This document shows positions 21,855 through 40,807 of a DNA stretch of 58,288 nucleotides, piece after piece. The position numbers and the translations under genes were made by a program. The DNA lies in IMG/VR virus record IMGVR_UViG_3300045988_054519, positions 1 to 58,288 of that record. One strand, given 5' to 3'. Position 1 is the stretch's first letter. Each line of letters starts with the position of its first letter. The notes beneath the pieces were generated by a model that ran no database searches, had not been told where the DNA came from, and saw nothing but the letters and a program-made list of their open reading frames with translations. The DNA comes from a virus.

Positions 21855-23600
21855 TCAATACCTCCTAAATGGGTTTAACATAGCTTCAGCTTTTGCAACA
21901 GTGCCGCCTCGCATTTCGTTTTCAAAAAGTGATATGCTGTCCGGTGCATCGTCATGTGGTACTTTTCCGCTTCGTGTCATCTTAGTAAGTTCATCCATAA
22001 ACTTATAATATTGGCTTTGTCTATCCATCTTTTTAAAATCTCTAAAATAATAATCACGAATAATATTATCTCTTGCATTTTCCATTCTTGTAATTTTATT
22101 AGTGCAGTTAAACTTAAATCTTGCACTGCATCGGCCGCCTTTTTGCTTTACAAGTTCCATAACATCGCGGCCAAAATATTCTCCGGCGCTGTTGCTTTCA
22201 AATGTAACCGTTTTAACATTGTGTTTGACAAGCATATTGGCGCATTCAGGTTTGGTAAATTGTGTTCCGGCATTATCAAATACAACATCCACAATGTACA
22301 CTTCATTTCCGTACACATACCCAATAGGCATAGCACAACTATCTTCTCCCTTGTCTGCACTATCACAAGCTGCCATAATTGCATCAGGTTCTCTATCGAC
22401 CGGAAGTTCCTCAAAGTAATTAAGCTCGCTTTGAGCGAACATACGGCCTTTGGCTTCGTAAGGCTCCTGCTGAAATTCTGCGGCCCATGTTTCCGGTGAA
22501 ACAAGTTTGCGTTCTTTTCGGTAGTAATCTGTAGTAAAAATTTTTCGCAATCCTTTTTTGTCTTTACGGCATATTTCCCAATTGCTTTCATCTGTAATTG
22601 GGTCTAACGCCGGAATTGCTACTTCTTTCCATCTCCACCCTAATTCATCGGCCTTGTTCTGTAGTGCTGTAATAGGATCATACAAGCTGTATTTTGTGCC
22701 CTGAATAATAATAGGCGTGCCCTCTAATCTACGCCCCAAAACATCGTCTGTAACTTTTTCGCACAAAAACTCTAATCTATCTCGATTCCTTGCTTCTTCG
22801 TGGTTTTTAACGCAGTCATCAATATAAACAAGCACGTTTGCTTCTGTGCATCCTACAATGGCTCCATCAATAGGTCGGCAAGTAAACGTAGGAAAAATGT
22901 TTTTGCTCTTAAGGTCAATGGAAAGGTTTTCAGCACTTTTGTAATTATCACCTATTTTTACAGCATCAGGAAAAACGCTCAAAAATCGTTTATATGTGTT
23001 TTCGTTCTCAAAGTCTTGCAGCAACCCGCCGTAAAACCTTTTAACAAGTCCTTCGCCTTTTCCTACGCCAAATATACTTCCGTCCGGGTCTCTGCCACCC
23101 ATCATTTGTGCAAGTTTTAGTCCACCAGTGGTCTTACCAGTACGTTTCGGTTGTGAAACTGATAAAAAATCCAATTTTCCATCGTAAATTTCCTGATATG
23201 CTCCTACTACCGGCTTTAAAACCTGTCTTCTCGGAAAATAGAACCTCTTCCATGGGTCTTTTTCGTCAATTTCAATGTAGTAAAAAAAGCTGTCAACTAA
23301 ATACGCCGCTTCATACATTAAGACATCGTAAAACTGATCCAATATTCTGTAGGAAGTATTATTATCTCCGGCATAAACCTCTAAATCCGCGACACGGCCT
23401 CCGGTATTTTCTTTAACAAATTGTGCAATTATTTGCTTTGTTTTTGCAGATACTTTAAGACCATACTCAACATCATTTTCTGTTCTTACAGCCACAGCCA
23501 CAGCTTGTATGTATGCGTCAATGACCTGTTCGTCTATTCCGTTTCGCTCTATGTAGTTTTCATATCCGTTTACTGTGGAAATAAGGCTCTGACTAGCCAT
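21855..23600 (-). CDS. terL: Terminase large subunit
   Basis: Walker A SQPKRTGKTTGG and a C-terminal nuclease-like region. ATG 23600 follows GGAGGTG. Confidence 0.9.
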   Translation of the reverse strand: MASQSLISTVNGYENYIERNGIDEQVIDAYIQAVAVAVRTENDVEYGLKVSAKTKQIIAQFVKENTGGRVADLEVYAGDNNTSYRILDQFYDVLMYEAAYLVDSFFYYIEIDEKDPWKRFYFPRRQVLKPVVGAYQEIYDGKLDFLSVSQPKRTGKTTGGLKLAQMMGGRDPDGSIFGVGKGEGLVKRFYGGLLQDFENENTYKRFLSVFPDAVKIGDNYKSAENLSIDLKSKNIFPTFTCRPIDGAIVGCTEANVLVYIDDCVKNHEEARNRDRLEFLCEKVTDDVLGRRLEGTPIIIQGTKYSLYDPITALQNKADELGWRWKEVAIPALDPITDESNWEICRKDKKGLRKIFTTDYYRKERKLVSPETWAAEFQQEPYEAKGRMFAQSELNYFEELPVDREPDAIMAACDSADKGEDSCAMPIGYVYGNEVYIVDVVFDNAGTQFTKPECANMLVKHNVKTVTFESNSAGEYFGRDVMELVKQKGGRCSARFKFNCTNKITRMENARDNIIRDYYFRDFKKMDRQSQYYKFMDELTKMTRSGKVPHDDAPDSISLFENEMRGGTVAKAEAMLNPFRRY

Positions 23601-23703
23601 AAAGAAAAGCACCTCCGCTTTTGCAGAGATGCTTATAGACCTCTCTGCCTATAATTTTTCTAGGGTAGCGCCGCAAACCTCTTATGCGGCGGTAATATAT
23701 TAT

Positions 23704-24087
23704 TTATTTAATATCAATATCTGGTATTAATCTTTCAGGGTAAAACACCAATTCATAATGGTACTTATCTGTCCCAACCGGTTCTGTTTGCTCCATAACA
23801 TAACACGTCCAATCGTTAAGATATATATAATCTTTACAATATGTGTTCTCACCTGTTTTGATAGTAACTACAAGCTCATTACTACTGTTGTTGCTAAGAC
23901 TCATATATCCCTCTGCCTGCAACATAATTGTATCTGTCCTTGCATTTGTAACTGTAATTTTTCGATAGAGATTGAACTCATCTCCATCTTTTGACAGATT
24001 GTGATTCACGACATCTGCGGTTCTACAGCCAACCATTCCAAGCGCAATGCAGATTGTCATTCCTAATGCTAAAAGTTTCTTTTTCAT
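23704..24087 (-). CDS. Lipoprotein
   Basis: MKKKLLALGMTICIALGMVGC signal peptide with lipobox. ATG 24087 follows GGAAAGGAAG. Confidence 0.65.
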   Translation of the reverse strand: MKKKLLALGMTICIALGMVGCRTADVVNHNLSKDGDEFNLYRKITVTNARTDTIMLQAEGYMSLSNNSSNELVVTIKTGENTYCKDYIYLNDWTCYVMEQTEPVGTDKYHYELVFYPERLIPDIDIK

Positions 24088-24122
24088 GATTTCTTCCTTT
24101 CCGCTGATAATCAGCAATTAAA

Positions 24123-27167: not shown

Positions 27168-27404
27168 TCAAATCCTTGTAAAAACGTCTAAATCATAATT
27201 ATCTCGGATATAATCAACAACATCAGACAGCTTTTCTTTCACATACTCGTCATTCACAATATCAGGATGACAATAAAATGTGCAGCTGTCCTTTTTGCCC
27301 TCCGCTTTATATTTCCGGTAATCAAATGTCATTGTAAAAAGCGGTATTCGGGTTAAATTCTTTGTCTTCCTGCGAATATACCAATTTGCCAATCTTTTGA
27401 ACAT
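27168..27404 (-). CDS. Hypothetical protein
   Basis: ATG 27404 follows AAAGGAGG. First ORF after the RNA locus. Confidence 0.55.
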   Translation of the reverse strand: MFKRLANWYIRRKTKNLTRIPLFTMTFDYRKYKAEGKKDSCTFYCHPDIVNDEYVKEKLSDVVDYIRDNYDLDVFTRI

Positions 27405-27420
27405 ATAACTGCCTCCTTTA

Positions 27421-27455
27421 GCGCAGTGGGTATTCTCCCGACTGAACTACTGTCC
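27421..27455 (-). pseudogene. tRNA 5'-half fragment (acceptor strand, D-arm and start of the anticodon stem only)
   Basis: Minus strand reads GGACAGT A GTTC AGTCGGGA GAAT A CCCAC.., then runs straight into the RBS of ORF 27404. No matching 3' half was found. Confidence 0.5.
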
Positions 27456-27584
27456 GTTGTACAGTTTCTTGCGTGACCAATTCCAACTCTTTTCATATTC
27501 GAGTTAAAACTAGCCACACAAGCATTTTAATTATTCAGCAGGGACTACTGTAACGCCTGCTTATTCGGGAGCTACCCGACCGCT

Positions 27585-27695
27585 TGATGTGGTGAGGATT
27601 TGAACCTCCACATGACACTTAAGACGAGTGATCTAAGTTGCAGATTTCAACTCATAAATCTACTGCAATACTGGCTACCCATTTCAGCACACATC
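27585..27695 (-). ncRNA. 111-nt tRNA-like element with a long variable arm and an over-long anticodon arm
   Basis: Acceptor GATGTG/CACATC (6 bp), T-loop GAGG-TTCAAAT-CCTC, D-loop with GG, variable-arm hairpin CTTAGA..TCTTAAG, and a 10-12-bp arm TTGC..AGATTT / AAATCT..GCAA with 8-nt loop ATGAGTTG. Confidence 0.45.
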
Positions 27696-27769
27696 AACTC
27701 ACACATAGATGGTTTTGGGATAATACAGACAACCAACAACTATATTCCCATTTCGTTTATATGTGAAAG

Positions 27770-27852
27770 CGCAGATGCAAGGAGTCGAACCTTGACGGCA
27801 TTTCTGCCGGATAGCTTAGCAAGCTACTGTGATACCATTACACCACATCTGC
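27770..27852 (-). tRNA. tRNA-Ser(GCU): tRNA-Ser (anticodon GCU), type II
   Basis: Hand fold: GCAGATG/CATCTGC acceptor, 3-bp D stem, GTAGC-TTGCTAA-GCTAT anticodon arm, variable arm CGGCA-GAAA-TGCCG, CAAGG-TTCGACT-CCTTG T arm. No encoded CCA. Confidence 0.85.
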
Positions 27853-28859
27853 ACATTTTGGAACGGCAAGTCCCTACTACTACAATACCTATCTTGCCAT
27901 TCCAAAAAGTAAAACATAATTAAGATTTCTCTTTATTCACCATACATACAGCCATATTCTGCCACTGTGACGACAAGTCCGAGCCTTTGGGAGCGACCCT
28001 AAGGCTTCTTGCCGCTTTCAAGCACACGCGGGATTGATACCCACAAATTTCACGGTTCTTTCGGAATATTATCGTGTTCGCCATTCGATAATTGTTAGAA
28101 TGAAATCGTGCCATACCGCTACTTTAACGAGTTACTTGTGTTATATTCGGATTTCTCCGGTTTCAAGGCACACTGCTTAATTTGAGATTTTCCGTGATTT
28201 GTCCGTGGTCTCTCATTCCACGAACTTCAACGGATTATTCCTACACCGTAGGCGTCTATTATTCACAGCCACAAGTCCTCTGCCCTTGGCTTCTCTATGA
28301 TGATACACCACGCAAGCATTGTTGACGGTTTCCGTCTCCCTGCCGTACCTCACAGTACAGCAAAAGATATTAGCATATCCGGTATCCCGATTATGCCTAT
28401 CTCGTTTTCTCGCGTGTCTCGGCAAGGCTGAAAAACCTCTCTCCACCGAGATAATCATGTTTTAAACAAAACGGCCGGAGTCGGACCGGCATCAAGGTCA
28501 GAAAGGATGAAAAAACCTTTGCTTCGCCAATTAAGCTACGTTTTGCGCCGGTATGCAAACAACCGCACGTCTGCATACCACATACTTTTAAGAGGAGTTA
28601 TAACATGTCATCCGCCTATCACGGAACGTGGGAAACAAATAAAACCACGGGTTGATTTCCACAATGCCGTTTGTGTGCAGTGGGATACGCACACAAGCAG
28701 ACATCTTAATGTTCTGTCCGAACAAACCCCGCCGAACCGTCTCTCACGGTTCTTAACAGAATAGTCCTAGCGGAGAAAGGGGGTTCATGATAAATATGGA
28801 ATACAGATATATCATGTGGGGAAGAGCCATTCAGCCGTCCATCTGAACCTCTTCCCGAA
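27853..28859 (-). ncRNA. Candidate large structured ncRNA (GOLLD/ROOL-like class or novel), about 1 kb between two tRNAs
   Basis: No credible ORF on the transcribed strand. Many perfect 7-11-bp helices (see finding). Contains an embedded tRNA-like element and looks more G+C-rich than its flanks. Confidence 0.45.
28466..28545 (-). ncRNA. Embedded tRNA-like element with an aberrant anticodon region
   Basis: CAAAACG/CGTTTTG acceptor, GCTT-AATTGGCG-AAGC D arm, GCCGG-TCCGACT-CCGGC T arm. The anticodon stem is either AAGGT/ACCTT enclosing a 16-nt loop, or AAAGG/CCTTT with 9-nt loop TTTTTTCAT. Confidence 0.45.
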
Positions 28860-28930
28860 CGGGAGCAATGGGAATTGAACCCATATCCCGGCAGTCAAAG
28901 TGCCGTGTCTTGCCATTAAACGATGCCCCT
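28860..28930 (-). tRNA. tRNA-Gln(UUG): tRNA-Gln (anticodon UUG)
   Basis: Hand fold: AGGGGCA/TGCTCCC acceptor (A1:C72 mismatch, G4:U69), GTTT/AGAC D stem, CGGCA-CTTTGAC-TGCCG, ATGGG-TTCAATT-CCCAT. No encoded CCA. Confidence 0.8.
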
Positions 28931-28936
28931 TTATGC

Positions 28937-29188
28937 TTAACGCATATTCGTAAGTTCTTTAGCCGCCGCAAGCATAATCTTTTCGTATTTCCTGCGGCTG
29001 ACATTAGCTTTAACAACCTTATCAAGAATGTTACAAGCTCTAACATCATCTGCGTGCTGTTCTGCCAGGTAATCAAATATCTGCAATACCTCACGTTTAC
29101 TTGCCGGCAAAGTGGTGTCTTTATCAAGAATATCCTTAACGCGGTCTCTATAAGATTTTTGCATTTCTGCCAAACTGCTATACAACAT
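28937..29188 (-). CDS. Hypothetical helical protein
   Basis: ATG 29188 follows AAAGGAG. 83 aa, and the stop abuts tRNA-Gln. Confidence 0.6.
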   Translation of the reverse strand: MLYSSLAEMQKSYRDRVKDILDKDTTLPASKREVLQIFDYLAEQHADDVRACNILDKVVKANVSRRKYEKIMLAAAKELTNMR

Positions 29189-30184: not shown

Positions 30185-30346
30185 CTGTTGGGCCTCCTTC
30201 CTGGAAATAAAAAAAACAAACGAAAAGAAAATACATCAGGCGATTTGTTCTGCTCTGTGTATTTTTTAAAATCGTTTGTTTGTCGTGTGCCGGATTGTTC
30301 CAGCTATCGTATGTGCAATAGCAATATATTGTTGTTGATGACATCA

Positions 30347-30375
30347 ACTATATCACATAGATTTTATTTTATCAA
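30347..30375 (-). promoter_or_regulatory. Sigma-70-type promoter upstream of terS
   Basis: Minus strand TTGATA (30375-30370), 17 nt, TATAGT (30352-30347). About 160-nt leader to terS. Confidence 0.5.
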
Positions 30376-30513
30376 GTAAATAAAAAAAATAATATCGGAA
30401 ATAATTTTGATTTTCACTTGACAAAAAAGAGAAAATGGTGTATTTACGCGCGCACGCGCCCGCTCTCTCATATATTAATACGACTGTTAAGGAGTATTAA
30501 TATATATTTTAAT

Positions 30514-30625
30514 AATCTAAATCTAATCTAAATCTAAATCTAAGTCTCAGGTTACAATTTGTTACAATTCCGTAACATTTTGTATACAAGTTGTATACAA
30601 GTTGTATACAGATTGTAATCAGAAC
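30514..30625. repeat. Repeat hub: AATCTA-type tandem repeats, GTTACAAT iterons and three 11-bp-phased palindromes TTGTATACAA
   Basis: aatctaaatctaatctaaatctaaatcta (30514-30543); gttacaatttgttacaattccgtaaca (30551-30577); ttgtatacaa at 30580, 30591 and 30602. Confidence 0.9.
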
Positions 30626-30667
30626 CGCGCAGCCCCTTATTTTACGGCATTTTTGCGCAATAAAAAA

Positions 30668-30690
30668 GAACGCCCGGAGGCGTTCAATCT
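30668..30690 (-). terminator. Rho-independent terminator after ORF 30698..30886
   Basis: Minus strand GAACGCC-tccg-GGCGTTC followed by TTTTTTATT. Confidence 0.75.
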
Positions 30691-30697
30691 TATTTAT

Positions 30698-30886
30698 CTA
30701 TCCGTTTTTTTTACACATAAGGCACACGCTCGGCGTGTCCGGTGTTACGTCCGTTTTCATACAATCAACGGCATAATGTCCGGGGAACTCGTGCATACAT
30801 GAATTACATTCTCTGGTACCCATGTAACATTCCTCGCGGGTTACTTCTGTAACCTGTTTGTATTTTCTCATGTCCTCTTTGTTCAT
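30698..30886 (-). CDS. Small Cys-rich protein
   Basis: ATG follows GGAGGAGG. 62 aa. CYMGTRECNSCMH..C..CLMC. Confidence 0.6.
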   Translation of the reverse strand: MNKEDMRKYKQVTEVTREECYMGTRECNSCMHEFPGHYAVDCMKTDVTPDTPSVCLMCKKNG

Positions 30887-30995
30887 TTATTCCGCCTCCT
30901 CTCCGACCTTAACAAAAGCTACTAATCCGCTGTAATAATTCATGATTATTTACCATTTGCGTTACTGTAACGCCCTTTCTTTATTTGATATATTC

Positions 30996-31024
30996 ATCAT
31001 AGCGCGCTTGCGCTATGCTGTCAA
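30996..31024 (-). promoter_or_regulatory. Near-consensus promoter with a palindromic operator in the spacer
   Basis: Minus strand TTGACA-gcATAGCGCaagcGCGCTAT-GAT (17-nt spacer; the -10 hexamer TATGAT overlaps the right half-site). Confidence 0.65.
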
Positions 31025-31041
31025 TACCTTATTTTAAATTT

Positions 31042-31269
31042 TTAAAAATATTTGATTTTTTCGGCATCCGTCGGGATGACTTCCAAGATGTCGCCCGGCT
31101 GGCATCTTAATAATAGACAAATCCGGTTGATTATCTCAGGCGTTACCATTTCGCCGGATCTGATTAGTGCCGCCGTCCTGCTTGACAATGTTTTGTTCTT
31201 CAATAATTGCGATTGAGAATATCCGCGCGCCTTGAGTGCTGCGAATATATCTATCTTATATTTCATCAT
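31042..31269 (-). CDS. Small XRE/Cro-type HTH regulator (Aca-like candidate)
   Basis: MKYKIDIFAALKARGYSQSQLLKNKTLSSRTAALIRSGE HTH. ATG 31269 follows GGAGGT. Confidence 0.7.
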   Translation of the reverse strand: MMKYKIDIFAALKARGYSQSQLLKNKTLSSRTAALIRSGEMVTPEIINRICLLLRCQPGDILEVIPTDAEKIKYF

Positions 31270-31326
31270 ATTATTATGTACCTCCATTCTGGAGCGGATC
31301 GGCTCCGGTTGAAAATCTTTAAATCT

Positions 31327-31355
31327 ACTATATAGATTATAGCGCGAAATGTCAA
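31327..31355 (-). promoter_or_regulatory. Promoter of the HTH gene
   Basis: Minus strand TTGACA-tttcGCGCTATAATcta-TATAGT (17-nt spacer). Contains the GCGCTAT half-site. Confidence 0.6.
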
Positions 31356-31388
31356 GATAAATTTTTCAAAAAATATTTGCAAAAGCTA

Positions 31389-31417
31389 TTGACATTATAG
31401 CTTTTGTGCGCTATAAT
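31389..31417 (+). promoter_or_regulatory. Consensus sigma-70 promoter driving the plus-strand island
   Basis: TTGACA-ttATAGCttttgtGCGC-TATAAT (17-nt spacer). The right half-site GCGCTAT overlaps the -10, the same architecture as 30996-31024. Confidence 0.7.
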
Positions 31418-31468
31418 CAAGCTATCAAATAAGAAAGGGCAGCCGCAAAGCTGCAAAGGTAAAATAAA

Positions 31469-31645
31469 ATGGTTGATTTAATTAGTTTTGAGGAAATTGC
31501 CAAAAAACATACTGCCGGCGAATATATAGCCGTCGGCGATGATGGCCGAGAATATCCGGCCTCATATGTTCCAGATTATACGCCGGACGGTGTGATGTTC
31601 TTCTGTATACCGGCATCTGTAAGTATCAAAGGCTTTAATGAATGA
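31469..31645 (+). CDS. Small hypothetical protein (58 aa, below the ORF-track cutoff)
   Basis: My translation: MVDLISFEEIAKKHTAGEYIAVGDDGREYPASYVPDYTPDGVMFFCIPASVSIKGFNE. First ORF after promoter 31389. Confidence 0.45.
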   Translation: MVDLISFEEIAKKHTAGEYIAVGDDGREYPASYVPDYTPDGVMFFCIPASVSIKGFNE

Positions 31646-31827
31646 TGGGTATAATGTTGTATTCGATGATTCAAGTATCAGCGCCGCCGAGAACGAAAGA
31701 AAACGGCGAAAAGTCGAAAAATTCGCATAATTAAGGCAAGCCGGGGCGGCCATAACGGGGTTCAACTCCCCGGATTGCTTTTAACCCCGTTATGGGGTAT
31801 TATAAAACAAAAAGGAGGTCAACAGAT

Positions 31828-32112
31828 ATGACAAAAGTTGACATTGAAGAATTAAAGGAATTGAACTATGAGCAGGGTGCGGAACTCTTAACCGCTGCCG
31901 GATATGCCGAAAGTGACGGAGCCACGGCTGACGCATCAGACATAGCGGATTTCGTCCGGGATAATTATTGGAAACTCTACGATGAGGGCGGCGAAACAAT
32001 CGATACCGTTTCATGGGCGGAATGTTTTAATATTTTGAAACACAACGCCGGCGACCTTGACGACGAGGAGATTATCCGCGCCGGTTGGGAACGTATGGAG
32101 TATGTAGAGTAG
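31828..32112 (+). CDS. Small acidic protein, paralog A (anti-defence candidate)
   Basis: ATG 31828 lies 9 nt after AGGAGG. ELKELNYEQGAELLTAAGY...SWAECFNILK...GWERMEY aligns with paralog B. About 24 D/E against 7 K/R. Confidence 0.65.
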   Translation: MTKVDIEELKELNYEQGAELLTAAGYAESDGATADASDIADFVRDNYWKLYDEGGETIDTVSWAECFNILKHNAGDLDDEEIIRAGWERMEYVE

Positions 32113-32204
32113 CCGCCGCAGAGGATGCGCACCGGTTCAATTCCGGGGCGCGGTGTTACCGCTCCAAGGTGGGCGGATAAATTAAATTTAGGAGGTAACG
32201 AAAA

Positions 32205-32449
32205 ATGGAGTTGCAATGGTATCACGGCCGCGAGGTCACGGAGCAGGAACGAAAAGCAATTACGGAGGCACTCGGAGATTCAATGATGAAGACATTCAAC
32301 GATGGATAGACGATAGCATCATTACGTTGAACGGATGCCGAAACGGTCGGGATTGCGTGTGGATAATTACTGACAATTACGAGTGCGCCGTGTACGTCGA
32401 CAGCTTAAAAGAAATGGCAAACGCGGAAATAGAAAAACAACTGCTATAA
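32205..32449 (+). pseudogene. Split ORF: RBS-led frame A (32205..32309) stops, and the -1 frame (track ORF 32216..32449) carries the plausible C-terminus
   Basis: Frame A after AGGAGG reads MELQWYHGREVTEQERKAITEALGDSMMKTFNDG*. The -1 frame reads ...NDEDIQRWIDDSIITLNGCRNGRDCVWIITDNYECAVYVDSLKEMANAEIEKQLL. Confidence 0.45.
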
Positions 32450-32454
32450 CAACA

Positions 32455-32477
32455 GGGCGGTACATACCGCCCTTATT
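32455..32477 (+). terminator. Terminator-like hairpin
   Basis: GGGCGGTA-ca-TACCGCCC followed by TTATT. Confidence 0.55.
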
Positions 32478-32492
32478 CCGCGCGCCGTGGTG

Positions 32493-32521
32493 TTGACATA
32501 TCCGGCACGCCGGGGTATTAT
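32493..32521 (+). promoter_or_regulatory. Promoter of paralog B
   Basis: TTGACA, 17 nt, TATTAT. Confidence 0.6.
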
Positions 32522-32591
32522 GATTTTATAATTATATTTTTACACACTTTGAATAAGAGTGTAAAACCGTGCAAAAAGGAGGTTGGCAGAT

Positions 32592-32882
32592 GTGATAATG
32601 GACATTGATTTTTTAAAAAAATTAAACTATGAAGAGGGTGCGGAACTCTTGGCACTGGTTGGATATGTGAAGAATTGCGGTGTTACGGCAGTTACCGCCT
32701 GGGCGTCGGAATACGCACAAGACGAATGTTGGATTCTTTACGATGCGAACGGAACAGAATCAGATATAATATCATGGATTGAATATTTCAACTTCTTAAA
32801 GAAACCCCCGCGGAGTGATGCCGATATTGCCATTGCGAGATGGGAGCGCGTGAATTGGCGAATTGCACGCAGGGAGCAATAG
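32592..32882 (+). CDS. Small protein, paralog B of 31828..32112
   Basis: FLKKLNYEEGAELLALVGY...SWIEYFNFLK...ARWERVNW. GTG 32592 lies 9 nt after AGGAGG (ATG 32598 is the alternative start). Confidence 0.6.
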   Translation: MIMDIDFLKKLNYEEGAELLALVGYVKNCGVTAVTAWASEYAQDECWILYDANGTESDIISWIEYFNFLKKPPRSDADIAIARWERVNWRIARREQ

Positions 32883-33113
32883 CAGCGTATCTGTTTTTTT
32901 ATTGGTCGGCAGTAGGACTGGTGTACCCAAAATCTGAAATTGTTCAGAACCGTCAAAAAAATTTTCGGAAATTTCACACAAAAATGGAAAAATGTTGAAA
33001 ACGGTTTTTCTAATTTAAAAAGTGCTACCCAGGGGGGTATTTTGAAAAAGGCATTATAATTTTGCAGAAAAACAAATTCTAAAAAACTTAAAATTGCATT
33101 TTTATAATAAAAT

Positions 33114-33908
33114 TCAAGTACCCAATGGGGTATTTTTGCGGTTGACTTGTTTTTTGCTTTGAACTGTTTTTATATCTTCCAACGCTTCTTCTATGCTCAT
33201 GCCCTTTTTTATAACTCTAAGGTACAATCTACTATATGTAGTTCCGTTAGATTTTGCTATATCTTTTAAATTAAACTCTTTGCCGTTGATTATAAAATTT
33301 TTAGATATTCTTCTATTCATAACCTGTTCTTTAGATGTCGCCCACCTGCAGTTATCAGGGGAATATCCATCATTGTTATTTATACGGTCAATAGAAAGAC
33401 CATTTCTATATCCATTATCAATAGACCATTTGTAAAAGTAAAAAAAACCGTCTTTTCCGCTCCATTCATCGCATACTCTTATTCCTCTTCCACCATACTT
33501 TTCATATCTAGTGTTTGATTCTAGTTCGCACCTTGAATGCATTCCAATAAAAATTTTATATATACTTAAATTTGAATATTTTTTAGGAACTCCACAAAGT
33601 TCTTTCATATTTTTTCTGTGCAAGCGCACTTTTTTTGTATGTTGTGACTTAATACTTGACGAGGTATATTTGTTGCCAAAATAGCAATTATCAGGGCAAT
33701 AATTTTTTGATCCATCTTTTCTATTCAATCGTAGATTTTTATTCCAACCGTTTTCTTTACACCATTTTCTAAATTTTTCTCTGTCTTTCCATTCATCGCA
33801 GACCTCAATTCCTTTAGCACCGTAATCCTTATAAGCTATGGATTTCTCATTATAACATCTTTTCATCATTTCATAATGCAAACCACCAATGGTATCTAAA
33901 TTTGCCAT
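33114..33908 (-). CDS. Homing-endonuclease-like protein (duplicated HNH/AP2-like DNA-binding module plus C-terminal HTH)
   Basis: Two copies of Y..YG(A/G)(K/R)GI.VCDEW......F..W...NG(W/Y)...L(S)(I/L).R...(D)G.Y.P.NC. Second copy ends RWATSKEQ. The segment is very AT-rich. Confidence 0.55.
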   Translation of the reverse strand: MANLDTIGGLHYEMMKRCYNEKSIAYKDYGAKGIEVCDEWKDREKFRKWCKENGWNKNLRLNRKDGSKNYCPDNCYFGNKYTSSSIKSQHTKKVRLHRKNMKELCGVPKKYSNLSIYKIFIGMHSRCELESNTRYEKYGGRGIRVCDEWSGKDGFFYFYKWSIDNGYRNGLSIDRINNNDGYSPDNCRWATSKEQVMNRRISKNFIINGKEFNLKDIAKSNGTTYSRLYLRVIKKGMSIEEALEDIKTVQSKKQVNRKNTPLGT

Positions 33909-33943
33909 TATAAGCACCTACCTTTCTAATATCTATTATAACA

Positions 33944-33986
33944 TACTTTATAAAGTATTGCAACATACTTTAAAAAGTAGTATAAT
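33944..33986 (+). promoter_or_regulatory. Promoter with two tandem palindromic operators
   Basis: TACTTTATAAAGTA (33944-57, perfect palindrome), TTGCAA (33958-63), TACTTTAAAAAGTA (33966-79, inside the spacer), TATAAT (33981-86). Confidence 0.65.
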
Positions 33987-34006
33987 TCACAAAAAAGGAG
34001 AACGTC

Positions 34007-34222
34007 ATGTCAAAGTCGAAAACATCAGCAGAAGTTAAAAATAGATGGAATGAAAAAAACTATGACCGAATAACTGTTATGGCACCAAAGGGCAAAAAAG
34101 ATGAGTGGCTTGCTTTAGCGAAAAAGAAAGGTTTTAAGGGTCTGAATGGATTTATTATTGATTGTATAAATAATTGCACAGAAAACCAGTGCAACGCGAA
34201 AAAAGTTTCAAAAAAAATTTAA
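34007..34222 (+). CDS. Arc/RHH-like small DNA-binding protein (antitoxin-like)
   Basis: SAEVKNRWNEKNYDRITVMAPKGKKDEWLALAKKKGFKGLNGFIIDCI matches the common ribbon-helix-helix pattern K..Y..I....PKG.K......A...G.S.N.FI. Confidence 0.55.
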   Translation: MSKSKTSAEVKNRWNEKNYDRITVMAPKGKKDEWLALAKKKGFKGLNGFIIDCINNCTENQCNAKKVSKKI

Positions 34223-34240
34223 ATTTTACGGAGGATATAT

Positions 34241-34507
34241 ATGCCATTAATAAATCATCAAGGGGAGAGAATTTCATACGAATGTGAAGATTTAATCAAG
34301 GAATTAGAGAATGATATTGCTGAATTTGGTGGCGATATGATAGTAGATGTCGTTACTATGAGGGCGAAAGGTGTAACACTCTACATTGATTACAATTTTG
34401 CCGAAGAGGGGAAACCGCCATTTGAATTGAGAGAATATGAGAGCCACAAATTGATGAAAGCATCTATGCTGTTGGCTTTACTGAAAATGGAAAATTCTAT
34501 ATGTTAA
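34241..34507 (+). CDS. Hypothetical protein, downstream partner of the RHH gene
   Basis: 88 aa. ATG lies 7 nt after GGAGGA. Confidence 0.5.
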   Translation: MPLINHQGERISYECEDLIKELENDIAEFGGDMIVDVVTMRAKGVTLYIDYNFAEEGKPPFELREYESHKLMKASMLLALLKMENSIC

Positions 34508-34541
34508 AAGGGATATGACTTTTGCCATATCCCTTATTTTC

Positions 34542-35246
34542 TTACTCTATAAATACTATCGGTGCATCGCCGTCAAATAATTTGCTGTCTATCTTCTGCC
34601 CTTTGTCCGCCCAAAGGCACCGCACCTTTTCAAAACGTCTATGCTTTCTTACAATAGTGTATCGGTTATTCAATGAATAAACCGTGCCGAGACAGTTGCG
34701 GCCGAATTTGTCTACCGGTATATATGCCGGTTCTGATAATTCTCCGGTTCGCGATTCGTCATACTCCGTTAAGTCGATTATCTCAACACTTTGTATGTCA
34801 CATAAATCGCCATATTCGCCCAATGACGGATAAATCGGTGGATTGGTTAATGCTTTGCATATCGTATTCAAATCCTCATCATCAGCCTTGATGTAAATTG
34901 TCAGATTAAGGTCGGTAAGCATCGCATGATTTTTTATAGCTCCTACCCAACCGGCATGTGAGCCATTTTCGTCATCTGTAATAATATCCCATCGCTTTTT
35001 TGCATCCGCATTTACCGTTTTAAAATGATAACCGCCTTGCCATTCACGTCTGACCTCGGTATTCATAATTCCCTTGCCGGAAATAAAGAAGTCTAAAGGA
35101 TGATAGGATGTCCACTGGCATAAATTGTGTATCAGGCCACATACTGTACTGAATGGCGGTAAGGGGTAGCAATCTGCTCCGCACGGTGCCATATGGTCTC
35201 TAAAATGTGCCATTTGCTGGAATGTCTTTAATTTTACCACTTTCAT
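34542..35246 (-). CDS. cas5: Cas5-like (type I-B/Cas5t-like RAMP) protein, solitary
   Basis: N-terminal KLKTFQQMAHFRDH......YPLPPFSTVCGLIHNL (the Cas5 A.FR...Y..PP.ST..G pattern), mid-block LTIYIKADDEDLNTICKALTNPPIYPSLGEYGDLCDI, about 234 aa. No other cas gene or CRISPR array in the window. Confidence 0.6.
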   Translation of the reverse strand: MKVVKLKTFQQMAHFRDHMAPCGADCYPLPPFSTVCGLIHNLCQWTSYHPLDFFISGKGIMNTEVRREWQGGYHFKTVNADAKKRWDIITDDENGSHAGWVGAIKNHAMLTDLNLTIYIKADDEDLNTICKALTNPPIYPSLGEYGDLCDIQSVEIIDLTEYDESRTGELSEPAYIPVDKFGRNCLGTVYSLNNRYTIVRKHRRFEKVRCLWADKGQKIDSKLFDGDAPIVFIE

Positions 35247-35272
35247 ATATATTCGTACCTCCGAAAAGTAAT

Positions 35273-35299
35273 AAAAGTCATAGATAGCCTATGACTTTT
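35273..35299 (-). promoter_or_regulatory. Perfect 11-bp hairpin plus T-tract in the cas5-like 5' leader (attenuator-like)
   Basis: AAAAGTCATAG-gctat-CTATGACTTTT followed by ATTACTTTTC, then GGAGG and the ATG. Confidence 0.5.
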
Positions 35300-35375
35300 C
35301 CATAATGTGTCTATTTATTATATGATTTAAGTAAATCTTTACATTCCAAAATGGATACTATTAATATTTGCTATT

Positions 35376-35404
35376 ATAATACAGTGCAATCTGCTATTTG
35401 TCAA
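35376..35404 (-). promoter_or_regulatory. Near-consensus promoter dedicated to the cas5-like gene
   Basis: Minus strand TTGACA (35404-35399), 17 nt, TATTAT (35381-35376). Confidence 0.65.
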
Positions 35405-35406
35405 CA

Positions 35407-35544
35407 CTATTTTTTATCCGCCGTAGATATAATGAGTGCCTTTGCTCCGTATTCAGATTTCCCGATTTCTTCACGAATTTTGTTTTCAGTGATTTCTGGA
35501 TTAGTTTTCTGCACCCTTTCATAAAGTGCCTTAAGGTCAATCAT
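35407..35544 (-). CDS. Small hypothetical protein (45 aa), translationally coupled to the metallopeptidase
   Basis: ATGA overlap with the stop of 35541..35864. My translation: MIDLKALYERVQKTNPEITENKIREEIGKSEYGAKALIISTADKK. Confidence 0.45.
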   Translation of the reverse strand: MIDLKALYERVQKTNPEITENKIREEIGKSEYGAKALIISTADKK

Positions 35545-39439: not shown

Positions 39440-40807
39440 CTAAAAATTCTTCAACTGAATTTCGATGTTGTCATTGACAATAACAATTTTAGATATTATA
39501 GTTTTAAGTATCTTATTTTTGGTTTGCTTGTCGATTTTGTCCCAAACGTCGGCAAGCTTTTTTATATTGTCATAGACAAATTCTTTCTTCTGCGTGTTCT
39601 TTGCCGCCTTGCTTTCCTCTTCAATCGCGGCGGTAATACGTTTTACTTCCTCTTCCGCCTGCTTAATCAACTCAATTACAGTGTCATTGCCCTCGGCATA
39701 AAGGATATACAGTCGTTTTAATTTGTTTTTCTCGCGGCTTAATTGTGACTGCATTATCTGTAATTTCGTTTCCTTTTCTTTTGGCTTGTATTTCGACAGA
39801 TTGACGGATATTTCAAGCATCTGTTTCTCTACCTGCTTTTCAATGTCTGACGCCCACTGTGGTTTGCTGTCGCAATCGTGGTTATAATTCGGAAGATAAT
39901 CAAGGTCTATGTTCTTTGAACAACAATATATTTTCCTTGGAGAGTCCTCTTTTTGCCCCCATTTCTGGTAGCGCATCGCACAACCACATACGCCGCAATA
40001 GCATAACCCCGTTAAAAGGTTGGTAGGGTGTGCAATCCAACTCTTGGCATCGTGCCTTGACTTTCTGATCTCCTGCGCAAGTTCGTAGCGCTCGATGTCA
40101 AATATCGGTTCGTGTTTGCCTTGATACACCTTGCCTTTGTACGGTATCATTCCGATGTTTACTACACTTGTCAAGATTTTCCGCGCTACCGGCTCACCGC
40201 TGTAATGGCAAATTCTAGCGATACGGCCGTCCGAATACCCATTGATATACAATTCAAGTGCATTCCTTGCCGTTTCGGCGCGCTCCGGAATTGGTATTAA
40301 AATACCCAATTCTTTATCATATGAATAGCAGAATGGCAAATTGCCACCGCCCATCCAAAAACCTCTCTTGACACGTTCCAACATTCCACCGCGCATACGG
40401 AGCATCATAGTATTTCTGTCATACTCTGCTACGGCAGCCATAACCTGCGTCTGAAATTTATCCTGCGGTGTTTCGTACCTAGCGAAATCGTGAACGCTTT
40501 CTACGCAAATTCCCTTTGGCGTAAAGATTTTTTCAATCATATACAGCGCATCCACGGTATCACGCGCAAGTCTGTCTAGCTTGTAGACAACAATAACGTC
40601 GATTTTAGCCATATCAGATATAAGCCTTTGAAGTTCAACACGTTTTGACATTTCCATTCCGGATAATCCGGCATCGACATAATACTCCTTGATAATCAAT
40701 TGATGTTTACGGCAATATTCGTCAATGTCACGTTTTTGGCTTTCAAGTCCGTAACCTTCCTCCGCTTGTCTTTCTGTAGAAACTCTTATATAAGCAACAC
40801 ATTCCAT
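39440..40807 (-). CDS. int: Large serine recombinase (phage integrase)
   Basis: YIRVSTERQAEEGYGLESQ catalytic-Ser resolvase domain, recombinase domain, Zn-ribbon CYCGVCGCAMRY...YCCS and C-terminal coiled coil. 455 aa. Confidence 0.9.
   Translation of the reverse strand: MECVAYIRVSTERQAEEGYGLESQKRDIDEYCRKHQLIIKEYYVDAGLSGMEMSKRVELQRLISDMAKIDVIVVYKLDRLARDTVDALYMIEKIFTPKGICVESVHDFARYETPQDKFQTQVMAAVAEYDRNTMMLRMRGGMLERVKRGFWMGGGNLPFCYSYDKELGILIPIPERAETARNALELYINGYSDGRIARICHYSGEPVARKILTSVVNIGMIPYKGKVYQGKHEPIFDIERYELAQEIRKSRHDAKSWIAHPTNLLTGLCYCGVCGCAMRYQKWGQKEDSPRKIYCCSKNIDLDYLPNYNHDCDSKPQWASDIEKQVEKQMLEISVNLSKYKPKEKETKLQIMQSQLSREKNKLKRLYILYAEGNDTVIELIKQAEEEVKRITAAIEEESKAAKNTQKKEFVYDNIKKLADVWDKIDKQTKNKILKTIISKIVIVNDNIEIQLKNF

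Follow-up and report, generated by a model that had tools for sequence, protein, structure and literature searches.

The interval from position 27405 to 28936 of the IMG/VR virus record IMGVR_UViG_3300045988_054519 (the window, 58,288 nt) is a non-coding stretch read on the minus strand, the strand of every long open reading frame (ORF) of the genome. It contains a ROOL RNA (Rfam family RF03087) framed by a tRNA-like element on its 5' side and by a hairpin and a tRNA-Ser gene on its 3' side. A tRNA-Gln gene and a spacer of 313 nt precede this group and a tail of 364 nt follows it. The features are collected in Table 1. The G+C content reaches 0.41-0.49 over positions 27400-29000 and 0.30-0.39 in the flanks, in agreement with a first-pass annotation that had noticed from the letters alone a G+C-rich, helix-dense stretch bracketed by two tRNA genes and had suggested a giant structured RNA, GOLLD- or ROOL-like or new. 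The tRNA-Gln and tRNA-Ser genes were recovered by both ARAGORN and Rfam, tRNA-Ser with a lower coordinate of 27769/70 where 27770 had been given, and the proposed link to tRNA genes and a Firmicute phage held as well. All helices that had been listed are present within one base of their given coordinates, namely GGGAAGAG/CTCTTCCC (28849-56/28819-26), GAACCGT/ACGGTTC (28734-52), GGTATGCA/TGCATACC (28550-89), GACGG-AAA-CCGTC (28324-36) and the 11-bp stem between ROOL and tRNA-Ser.

Table 1. Features of the RNA island and of the phage genome in the window, and hammerhead ribozymes of related contigs (MFE, minimum free energy)
Feature	Contig	Position	Strand	Remarks
tRNA-Gln (UUG)	window	28860-28930	-	canonical, 71 nt; ARAGORN; Rfam tRNA 54.6 bits
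Hairpin, 8-bp stem GGGAAGAG/CUCUUCCC, no U-tract	window	28819-28856	-	directly 3' of tRNA-Gln; in MFE fold
Three-way-junction motif	window	28725-28788	-	own covariance model R1, 79.9 bits
C-rich-loop hairpin, loop GUAUCCCACU	window	28672-28695	-	second module of the spacer RNA
Hairpin GGUAUGCA...UGCAUACC	window	28550-28589	-	just 5' of the tRNA-like element; in MFE fold
tRNA-like element	window	28465-28546	-	ARAGORN Lys-UUU; Rfam tRNA 44.2 bits; 3' end touches ROOL 5' end
ROOL RNA (RF03087)	window	27902-28474	-	573 nt, full length, Rfam cmscan
11-bp hairpin, 44 nt (stem 27860-70/27893-903)	window	27860-27903	-	between ROOL 3' end and tRNA-Ser
tRNA-Ser (GCU)	window	27769/70-27852	-	class II, 84 nt; ARAGORN; Rfam 59.3 bits
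dom1, 70-nt conserved hairpin module	window	27698-27768	-	directly after tRNA-Ser
dom2, 113-nt tRNA-like element	window	27585-27697	-	cloverleaf-like fold
dom3	window	27405-27584	-	two conserved hairpins and a 22-bp hairpin with G-U pairs
Phage_VG64 gene (PF25682; PHROG 'recombination directionality factor')	window	23704-24117	-	directly upstream of terL
TerL (large terminase subunit)	window	21855-23612	-	
Large serine recombinase	window	39440-40807	-	16 kb from the Phage_VG64 gene
Hammerhead_II	L006	3639-3706		
Hammerhead_II	L008	3169-3237		
Hammerhead_II	L037	6931-7000		
Hammerhead_II	L045	9416-9485		
Hammerhead_II	L272	1001-1068		

The ROOL assignment comes from the Infernal search that the first-pass annotation had proposed, in which the family scored 366.6 bits against a gathering score of 99.1 (E about 1e-84, mean posterior 0.94) and was aligned from model position 1 to 574 of 574 without truncation. 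All helices of the model are aligned, and about 26 non-canonical marks in the alignment are read as roughly 13 non-canonical pairs. The closing helix P1 pairs 28468-28453 with about 27922-27905. As the model is matched end to end and P1 lies inside the 573 nt, the RNA closes on itself within this length. The hairpin GACGG-AAA-CCGTC is one of the ROOL hairpins. For GOLLD (RF01998), raiA, HEARO, OLE and all other Rfam families beside ROOL and tRNA no match was obtained at E<=1 over 27300-29050 on both strands. Thus, of the alternatives offered earlier, ROOL stands, and the RNA is neither a GOLLD nor a new class.

ROOL was described as a family in 2017 (Weinberg et al., PMC5737381) and cryo-electron microscopy structures followed in 2025 (Kretsch et al., PMC12286853). 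The solved ROOLs of env-120 and E. faecalis form octamers and that of L. salivarius a hexamer (PMC12286853, PMC12990946), and both the cage assembly and the context of tRNA arrays are documented (PMC12286853, PMC12990946, PMC5737381). Pseudoknots and conserved kissing loops between subunits, for example L18 and bridge B6, are further traits of the family. The copy in the window resembles these RNAs in its ornate multi-junction structure with a long closing helix P1, its length (573 nt, family average 581), its variable internal linker, its place in a phage tRNA array with three tRNA-type genes within 450 nt, and its Firmicute host. The stretch aligned to model positions 340-400, a loosely conserved part of the model, matches weakly, and in this same stretch the indels and substitutions among relatives are concentrated (alignment columns 860-880). 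Since the published linker is variable and disordered inside the cage (PMC12286853), this variable stretch fits the linker. The RNA is therefore a ROOL on every feature that was examined, and the main element of the interval belongs to a known Rfam family and is not new. Nothing that defines the family is different here; what the clade of the window adds is a degenerate tRNA-like element at the 5' end and a spacer of 49 nt with a hairpin before the 3' tRNA. GOLLD is alike in being a large ornate phage RNA that lies in tRNA arrays and forms cages, and some of its members carry a tRNA. However, its sequence and structure are unrelated, and its tRNA sits in the internal linker, whereas the element in the window lies outside the RNA at the 5' end.

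As a different explanation, the interval could encode small proteins of 81, 64 and 45 aa and the RNA matches would then be incidental. Minus-strand ORFs of 64, 81, 59 and 45 aa do exist here, but they are rich in R, C and H, lack a ribosome-binding site (RBS) and lie over the tRNAs or over the 366-bit covariance-model match, except for the 45-aa ORF at 28588-28725. This sole ORF outside the RNA genes is frameshifted by a 2-nt indel in the close relative L007 (alignment columns 303-304), and substitutions among relatives keep base pairs and not codons. We regard a coding function as extremely improbable, in line with the earlier remark that no credible minus-strand ORF is present.

Relatives of the locus were defined by the neighbouring 229-aa protein, which nine IMG/VR contigs encode with 90-100% identity over the best aligned segment. 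Each of the nine shows the same order of tRNA-Gln, a spacer of about 313 nt, an odd tRNA, ROOL (358-373 bits), hairpin and tRNA-Ser. In the window ROOL, the three tRNA-type genes and all neighbouring genes share one strand, and the tRNA-like element, which lacks an encoded CCA, ends exactly where helix P1 of ROOL begins. The tRNA-Ser starts 49 nt after ROOL. The 11-bp hairpin in between is specific for this clade and is kept through wobble changes, while in many relatives tRNA-Ser abuts ROOL directly.

This framing by tRNAs is common. ROOL loci were gathered from IMG/VR with a strict internal ROOL pattern, and the following counts apply among the matches listed. A tRNA on the same strand ends 201-207 nt before the internal pattern in 70 of 111 loci; the corresponding distance in the window is 205 nt, so that the tRNA and ROOL genes abut. 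The junctions comprise 26 distinct sequences with at least nine tRNA identities, and none of the 26 encodes CCA. Trp, Tyr, Met, Gly, Asn, Lys, Phe, Glu, Arg and a suppressor tRNA were found to abut the 5' end of ROOL, which starts with UU(U/C)AAACAUGAUUA directly after the discriminator base. On the 3' side a tRNA starts between -8 and 0 nt from the end of the ROOL model in 44 of 99 loci, at 9-11 nt in seven and at 44 nt, close to the 49 nt of the window, in five. Two of the loci are unusual in the abutting tRNA, as one of the pair L144/L062 has a putative suppressor-type tRNA with the anticodon UUA, and in the other ARAGORN calls a four-base anticodon (UACC).

The tRNA-shaped element that the first-pass annotation had seen embedded in the RNA is indeed present, as a third ARAGORN call beside Gln-UUG and Ser-GCU. 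However, it is not nested as in some GOLLDs but lies immediately 5' of ROOL. The ARAGORN cloverleaf has intact acceptor, D and T arms. A canonical elongator tRNA would combine a 7-nt anticodon loop on a paired 5-bp stem, a purine at position 37, U54-U55-C56 and a short variable loop, and the element does not fit this description: a U.U pair closes the anticodon loop, position 37 is C, the variable loop has 12 nt, and the T-loop reads UCCGACU with U55 changed to C. Terminator-like matches inside the locus coincide with the T arm of this element, and the hairpin just 5' of it is kept in L007 through G-U changes.

It is possible that this is a working tRNA-Lys whose variant loop could evade anticodon nucleases, with the adjacency to ROOL reflecting nothing but tight packing. 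Phage tRNA-Lys variants that resist anticodon nucleases are known, the score of 44.2 bits exceeds the Rfam tRNA threshold of 29, ARAGORN finds the anticodon UUU in seven of nine relatives, and some relatives keep the D arm and a canonical T-loop (UUCAAAU). However, among relatives with 92-99% identity elsewhere, the loop that joins the two conserved halves of the stem measures 9, 10 or 12 nt and the called anticodon changes between UUU, CUU and UCU, and to this are added the C37, the U.U pair and the altered U55 of the copy in the window. In addition, many other tRNA identities occupy the same position next to ROOL, and therefore the position and not the identity is conserved. A decoding tRNA-Lys is thus unlikely in our view. 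The T stem, by contrast with the loop, shows compensatory changes (GCCGG/CCGGC, GUUGG/CCGAC, ACCGG/CCGGU), which fits selection on the shape of acceptor and T arm as it would be seen by RNase P and RNase Z rather than on decoding.

From the arrangement of the tRNA and ROOL genes we infer how ROOL might be released. The island would be transcribed as one multi-gene tRNA precursor, in which RNase Z would produce the 5' end of ROOL by a cut behind the discriminator base of the tRNA-like element that precedes it. RNase P would cut at the 5' end of tRNA-Ser to set the 3' end, leaving the 11-bp hairpin as a 3' cap. RNase Z acts on CCA-less precursors in Firmicutes, and excision of ROOL from such a transcript by the two enzymes fits the order of the genes. 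The released 573-nt RNA is expected, by homology with the solved ROOLs, to fold alone and to assemble, without protein, into a cage in which six or eight copies enclose the variable linker, and our best guess for the cage is that it keeps or protects RNA or ribosome-related cargo while the phage infects. In this scheme ROOL would typically be fused to CCA-less tRNAs, and in the clade of the window the upstream tRNA would have lost its normal decoding features and decayed to a pure processing handle, probably being kept mainly for this purpose.

A non-tRNA RNA flanked by tRNAs or tRNA-like structures is familiar from tRNA-punctuated processing of mitochondrial transcripts, from MALAT1/mascRNA and from bacterial tRNA-linked small RNAs (sRNAs). 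In analogy to these systems cuts by RNase P and RNase Z would set the ends, with a tRNA-like element that is apparently retained for the cut and not for decoding. For ROOL itself, the publications describe the RNA as 'often nearby to tRNAs', possibly co-transcribed with them, and 'within tRNA arrays', and maturation by tRNA-processing enzymes was not found stated in the same three papers (PMC5737381, PMC12286853, PMC12990946).

Several points speak against this processing scheme. Co-transcription and the cuts by RNase Z and RNase P are read from the gene arrangement, and a promoter scan gave 16 promoter-like sites where 16 are expected from shuffled sequences. About 30% of the ROOL loci, among the matches listed, have no abutting 5' tRNA, and therefore maturation that depends on a tRNA cannot be the sole route. 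The counts come from a strict pattern, with many loci from one metagenome (3300045988), so that they are not phylogenetically independent. Finally, charging and use of the odd tRNA-Lys are still conceivable, e.g., as a variant that escapes anticodon nucleases.

Upstream of the tRNA-like element, the 313-nt spacer is as conserved as ROOL among the relatives (92-99%) and folds modestly better than shuffled sequences (z = -2.5). Directly behind tRNA-Gln, which is present in all nine related loci, it begins with a hairpin that relatives keep through G-U changes. Its central part was found by nhmmer in 14 other ROOL loci, each time shortly after tRNA-Gln, and contains a three-way junction that is built, in this order, from a pyrimidine tail, helix H1 of 5 bp, a small hairpin, a UUAA linker, helix H2, a single G and the second strand of H1. 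The tail is CCCCCUUUC in the window and CCUCCUUUC in most relatives, with the consensus (C)CUCCUUUC. The small hairpin follows the pattern U(A/U)G...C(U/A)G, being UAG..CUG in the window, and H2 has 5-7 bp, with GAACCGT/ACGGTTC as the version of the window.

A pattern scan detected the junction motif in at least 117 IMG/VR contigs. In all 133 distinct contexts it lies on the strand of the tRNAs, 51-91 nt behind tRNA-Gln (UUG) in 84 and behind tRNA-Ile (UAU) in 32, and ROOL is present in only 23 of the 133. In the pattern-selected alignment 97.2% of the cells pair and five pairs change on both sides, and the covariation score was reached by none of 500 shuffles. With the covariance model divergent members were found in ROOL-free islands, where H1 occurs in six fully complementary versions, the small hairpin as UAG/CUG or UUG/CAG and H2 in at least eight versions. 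The ratio of G-U to A-C cells is 73 to 3, and the motif is therefore read on the minus strand. The opposite reading, in which AAAGGAGG would be an RBS on the plus strand followed by ATG and a tiny ORF, was rejected because of this ratio; moreover, a start codon is missing from one common sequence context, and the peptides show no conservation.

Downstream of the junction follows a hairpin with a C-rich loop. A loop of the UAUCCCAC type on covarying stems occurs there in 115 of 126 contexts, with a chance expectation of about 0.016 per context. The two modules together (28672-28788) were also found in L110, L140, L060, L031, L029 and L027, and no Rfam 15 family matches them at E<=5. The spacer thus holds an RNA family that is absent from Rfam 15, in which a covarying three-way junction and its CCUCCUUUC tail are combined with the hairpin that carries the UAUCCCAC loop. 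That this family and the framing of ROOL by tRNAs are both real and previously undescribed is a joint claim that we make tentatively, with somewhat more doubt than confidence. As to the role of the spacer RNA, its exposed C-rich segments, i.e., the CCUCCUUUC tail and the UAUCCCAC loop, could pair with Shine-Dalgarno regions as in the C-rich Firmicute sRNAs of the RsaE/RoxS type. However, there is no homology in sequence or structure to these sRNAs, and the spacer RNA differs from them in its three-way junction and in its location in a tRNA island of a phage. A tRNA-flanked phage sRNA that acts on ribosome-binding sites in this anti-Shine-Dalgarno manner is a speculative and rather improbable idea.

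On the other side of tRNA-Ser, the 364-nt tail (27405-27768) folds considerably better than shuffled sequences (z = -7.3) and consists of three parts. Homologues of dom1 follow tRNA-Ser in ROOL-free tRNA islands. The second part, dom2, has an 8-bp acceptor-like stem, a D loop containing GG, a long 'anticodon' arm, an extra arm and a T-arm loop UUCAAAU. Elements of this type (113-118 nt) recur in L023, L168, L241, L218 and other viral contigs with covarying stems. They share an acceptor-like stem of 8-9 bp, a D stem of 3 bp whose loop has GG, an 'anticodon' stem of 6 bp whose loop of about 19 nt includes GUUGAAA, an extra arm and the T-arm loop U(U/G)CAAAU. Neither ARAGORN nor Rfam calls dom2 a tRNA, and a relaxed ARAGORN run (introns, lowered thresholds, transfer-messenger RNA) gave no further tRNA in dom2 or dom3. 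The third part, dom3, ends in the 5' half of a tRNA (27420-27455) that is cut at the anticodon loop CUGCGCU and is followed by the RBS of a 78-aa ORF; the same tRNA is intact in L019, L020, L027 and L045. The signature of dom3 occurs in 36 viral contigs, mostly in ROOL-free tRNA islands with int-alpA RNA and hammerhead ribozymes. In L005, L007 and L009 the whole 364 nt are missing, exactly between two 7-nt repeats CTGCGCT, one of which is the 3' end of tRNA-Ser and the other the anticodon loop of the truncated tRNA. Four other relatives have a different, longer middle section. The tail is a dispensable cassette of tRNA-like relics.

With all modules at hand, the earlier proposal can be weighed that a single giant new RNA spans the complete 1.5 kb, or the 1,007 nt that separate tRNA-Gln from tRNA-Ser, with ROOL as one of its domains and the tRNA-like element embedded in it. 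Conservation is indeed equal (92-99%) for the spacer, the tRNA-like element, ROOL and the 3' hairpin, these four occur together in ten of ten contigs of the clade, and the primary transcript is probably continuous. However, ROOL covers 573 nt of it and closes on itself, with P1 inside the end-to-end match of the model, and the pieces occur independently in other phages: the spacer motif is accompanied by ROOL in the minority of contexts given above, dom3 is found in about 27 contigs without ROOL, and more than 100 ROOL loci have other neighbours. In addition, the tRNAs between the modules are natural cleavage points. A single giant RNA is therefore very unlikely, and separate modules, with ROOL as a self-contained RNA among tRNAs, are the reading that we prefer.

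The genome around the island encodes TerL, a portal protein, a major head protein and a tape measure protein, and also a large serine recombinase and a Phage_VG64 protein. A distance of 4.3 kb with several small ORFs separates the island from terL, which follows downstream on the same strand. The adjoining ORFs (229, 83, 78 and 160 aa) have no match in Pfam, PHROGs or NCBIfam, for which reason terS is not identifiable, and no small terminase subunit was recognisable in the genome with these databases. The placement of the RNA between terS and terL at the head of the late operon, as it had been suggested, could thus not be upheld, as terL is 4.3 kb away and the upstream 229-aa ORF is among those without a match. 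The 1.5 kb gave no blastn match among GenBank phages (distant mode). Relatives of TerL with 71-84% identity were found in metagenome-assembled genomes (MAGs) of Eubacterium sp., Lachnospiraceae and Acutalibacteraceae, which makes a gut bacterium of the Clostridia (Lachnospiraceae or Eubacterium) the probable host. Taken as a whole, the interval is very likely the tRNA island of a temperate, siphovirus-like phage of gut Clostridia with a genuine ROOL RNA as its largest element.

The Lachnospiraceae MAG with an 80%-identical TerL carries a ROOL as well (341 bits), and a tRNA ends where this ROOL begins. In three further related prophages the 8 kb upstream of terL contain nothing but tRNAs, int-alpA RNA or a hammerhead, which makes ROOL an optional cargo of the island. 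In ROOL-free islands int-alpA RNA (RF02996, 44-59 bits) was found directly after tRNA genes (L021, L023, L028, L031, L034, L041, L047 and L273). Type II hammerheads (53-65 bits) lie a few kb from the tRNA island in related phages (Table 1), and none was found at positions 30200-35500 of the window at E<=1. Within the window, a second stretch poor in long ORFs extends over 30200-33100, upstream of the 229-aa gene. The promoter-like sites near 31330-31420 in this stretch are the strongest (12/12 and 11/12 matches), and a clean hairpin of terminator type lies at 30668-30685.

ROOL RNAs are among the largest non-coding RNAs of bacteria and phages and form protein-free cages that are larger than a ribosome. 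By itself the locus adds little to the catalogue, being one further ROOL member from an uncultivated phage of gut Clostridia. The spacer RNA indicates that phage tRNA islands carry further conserved structured RNAs outside Rfam, which is relevant for the annotation of such islands and for the search for partners of ROOL. The junctions between tRNAs and ROOL provide a concrete and testable handle on the biogenesis of this RNA, as RNase Z and RNase P could give ROOL its mature ends and probably its high copy number, too.

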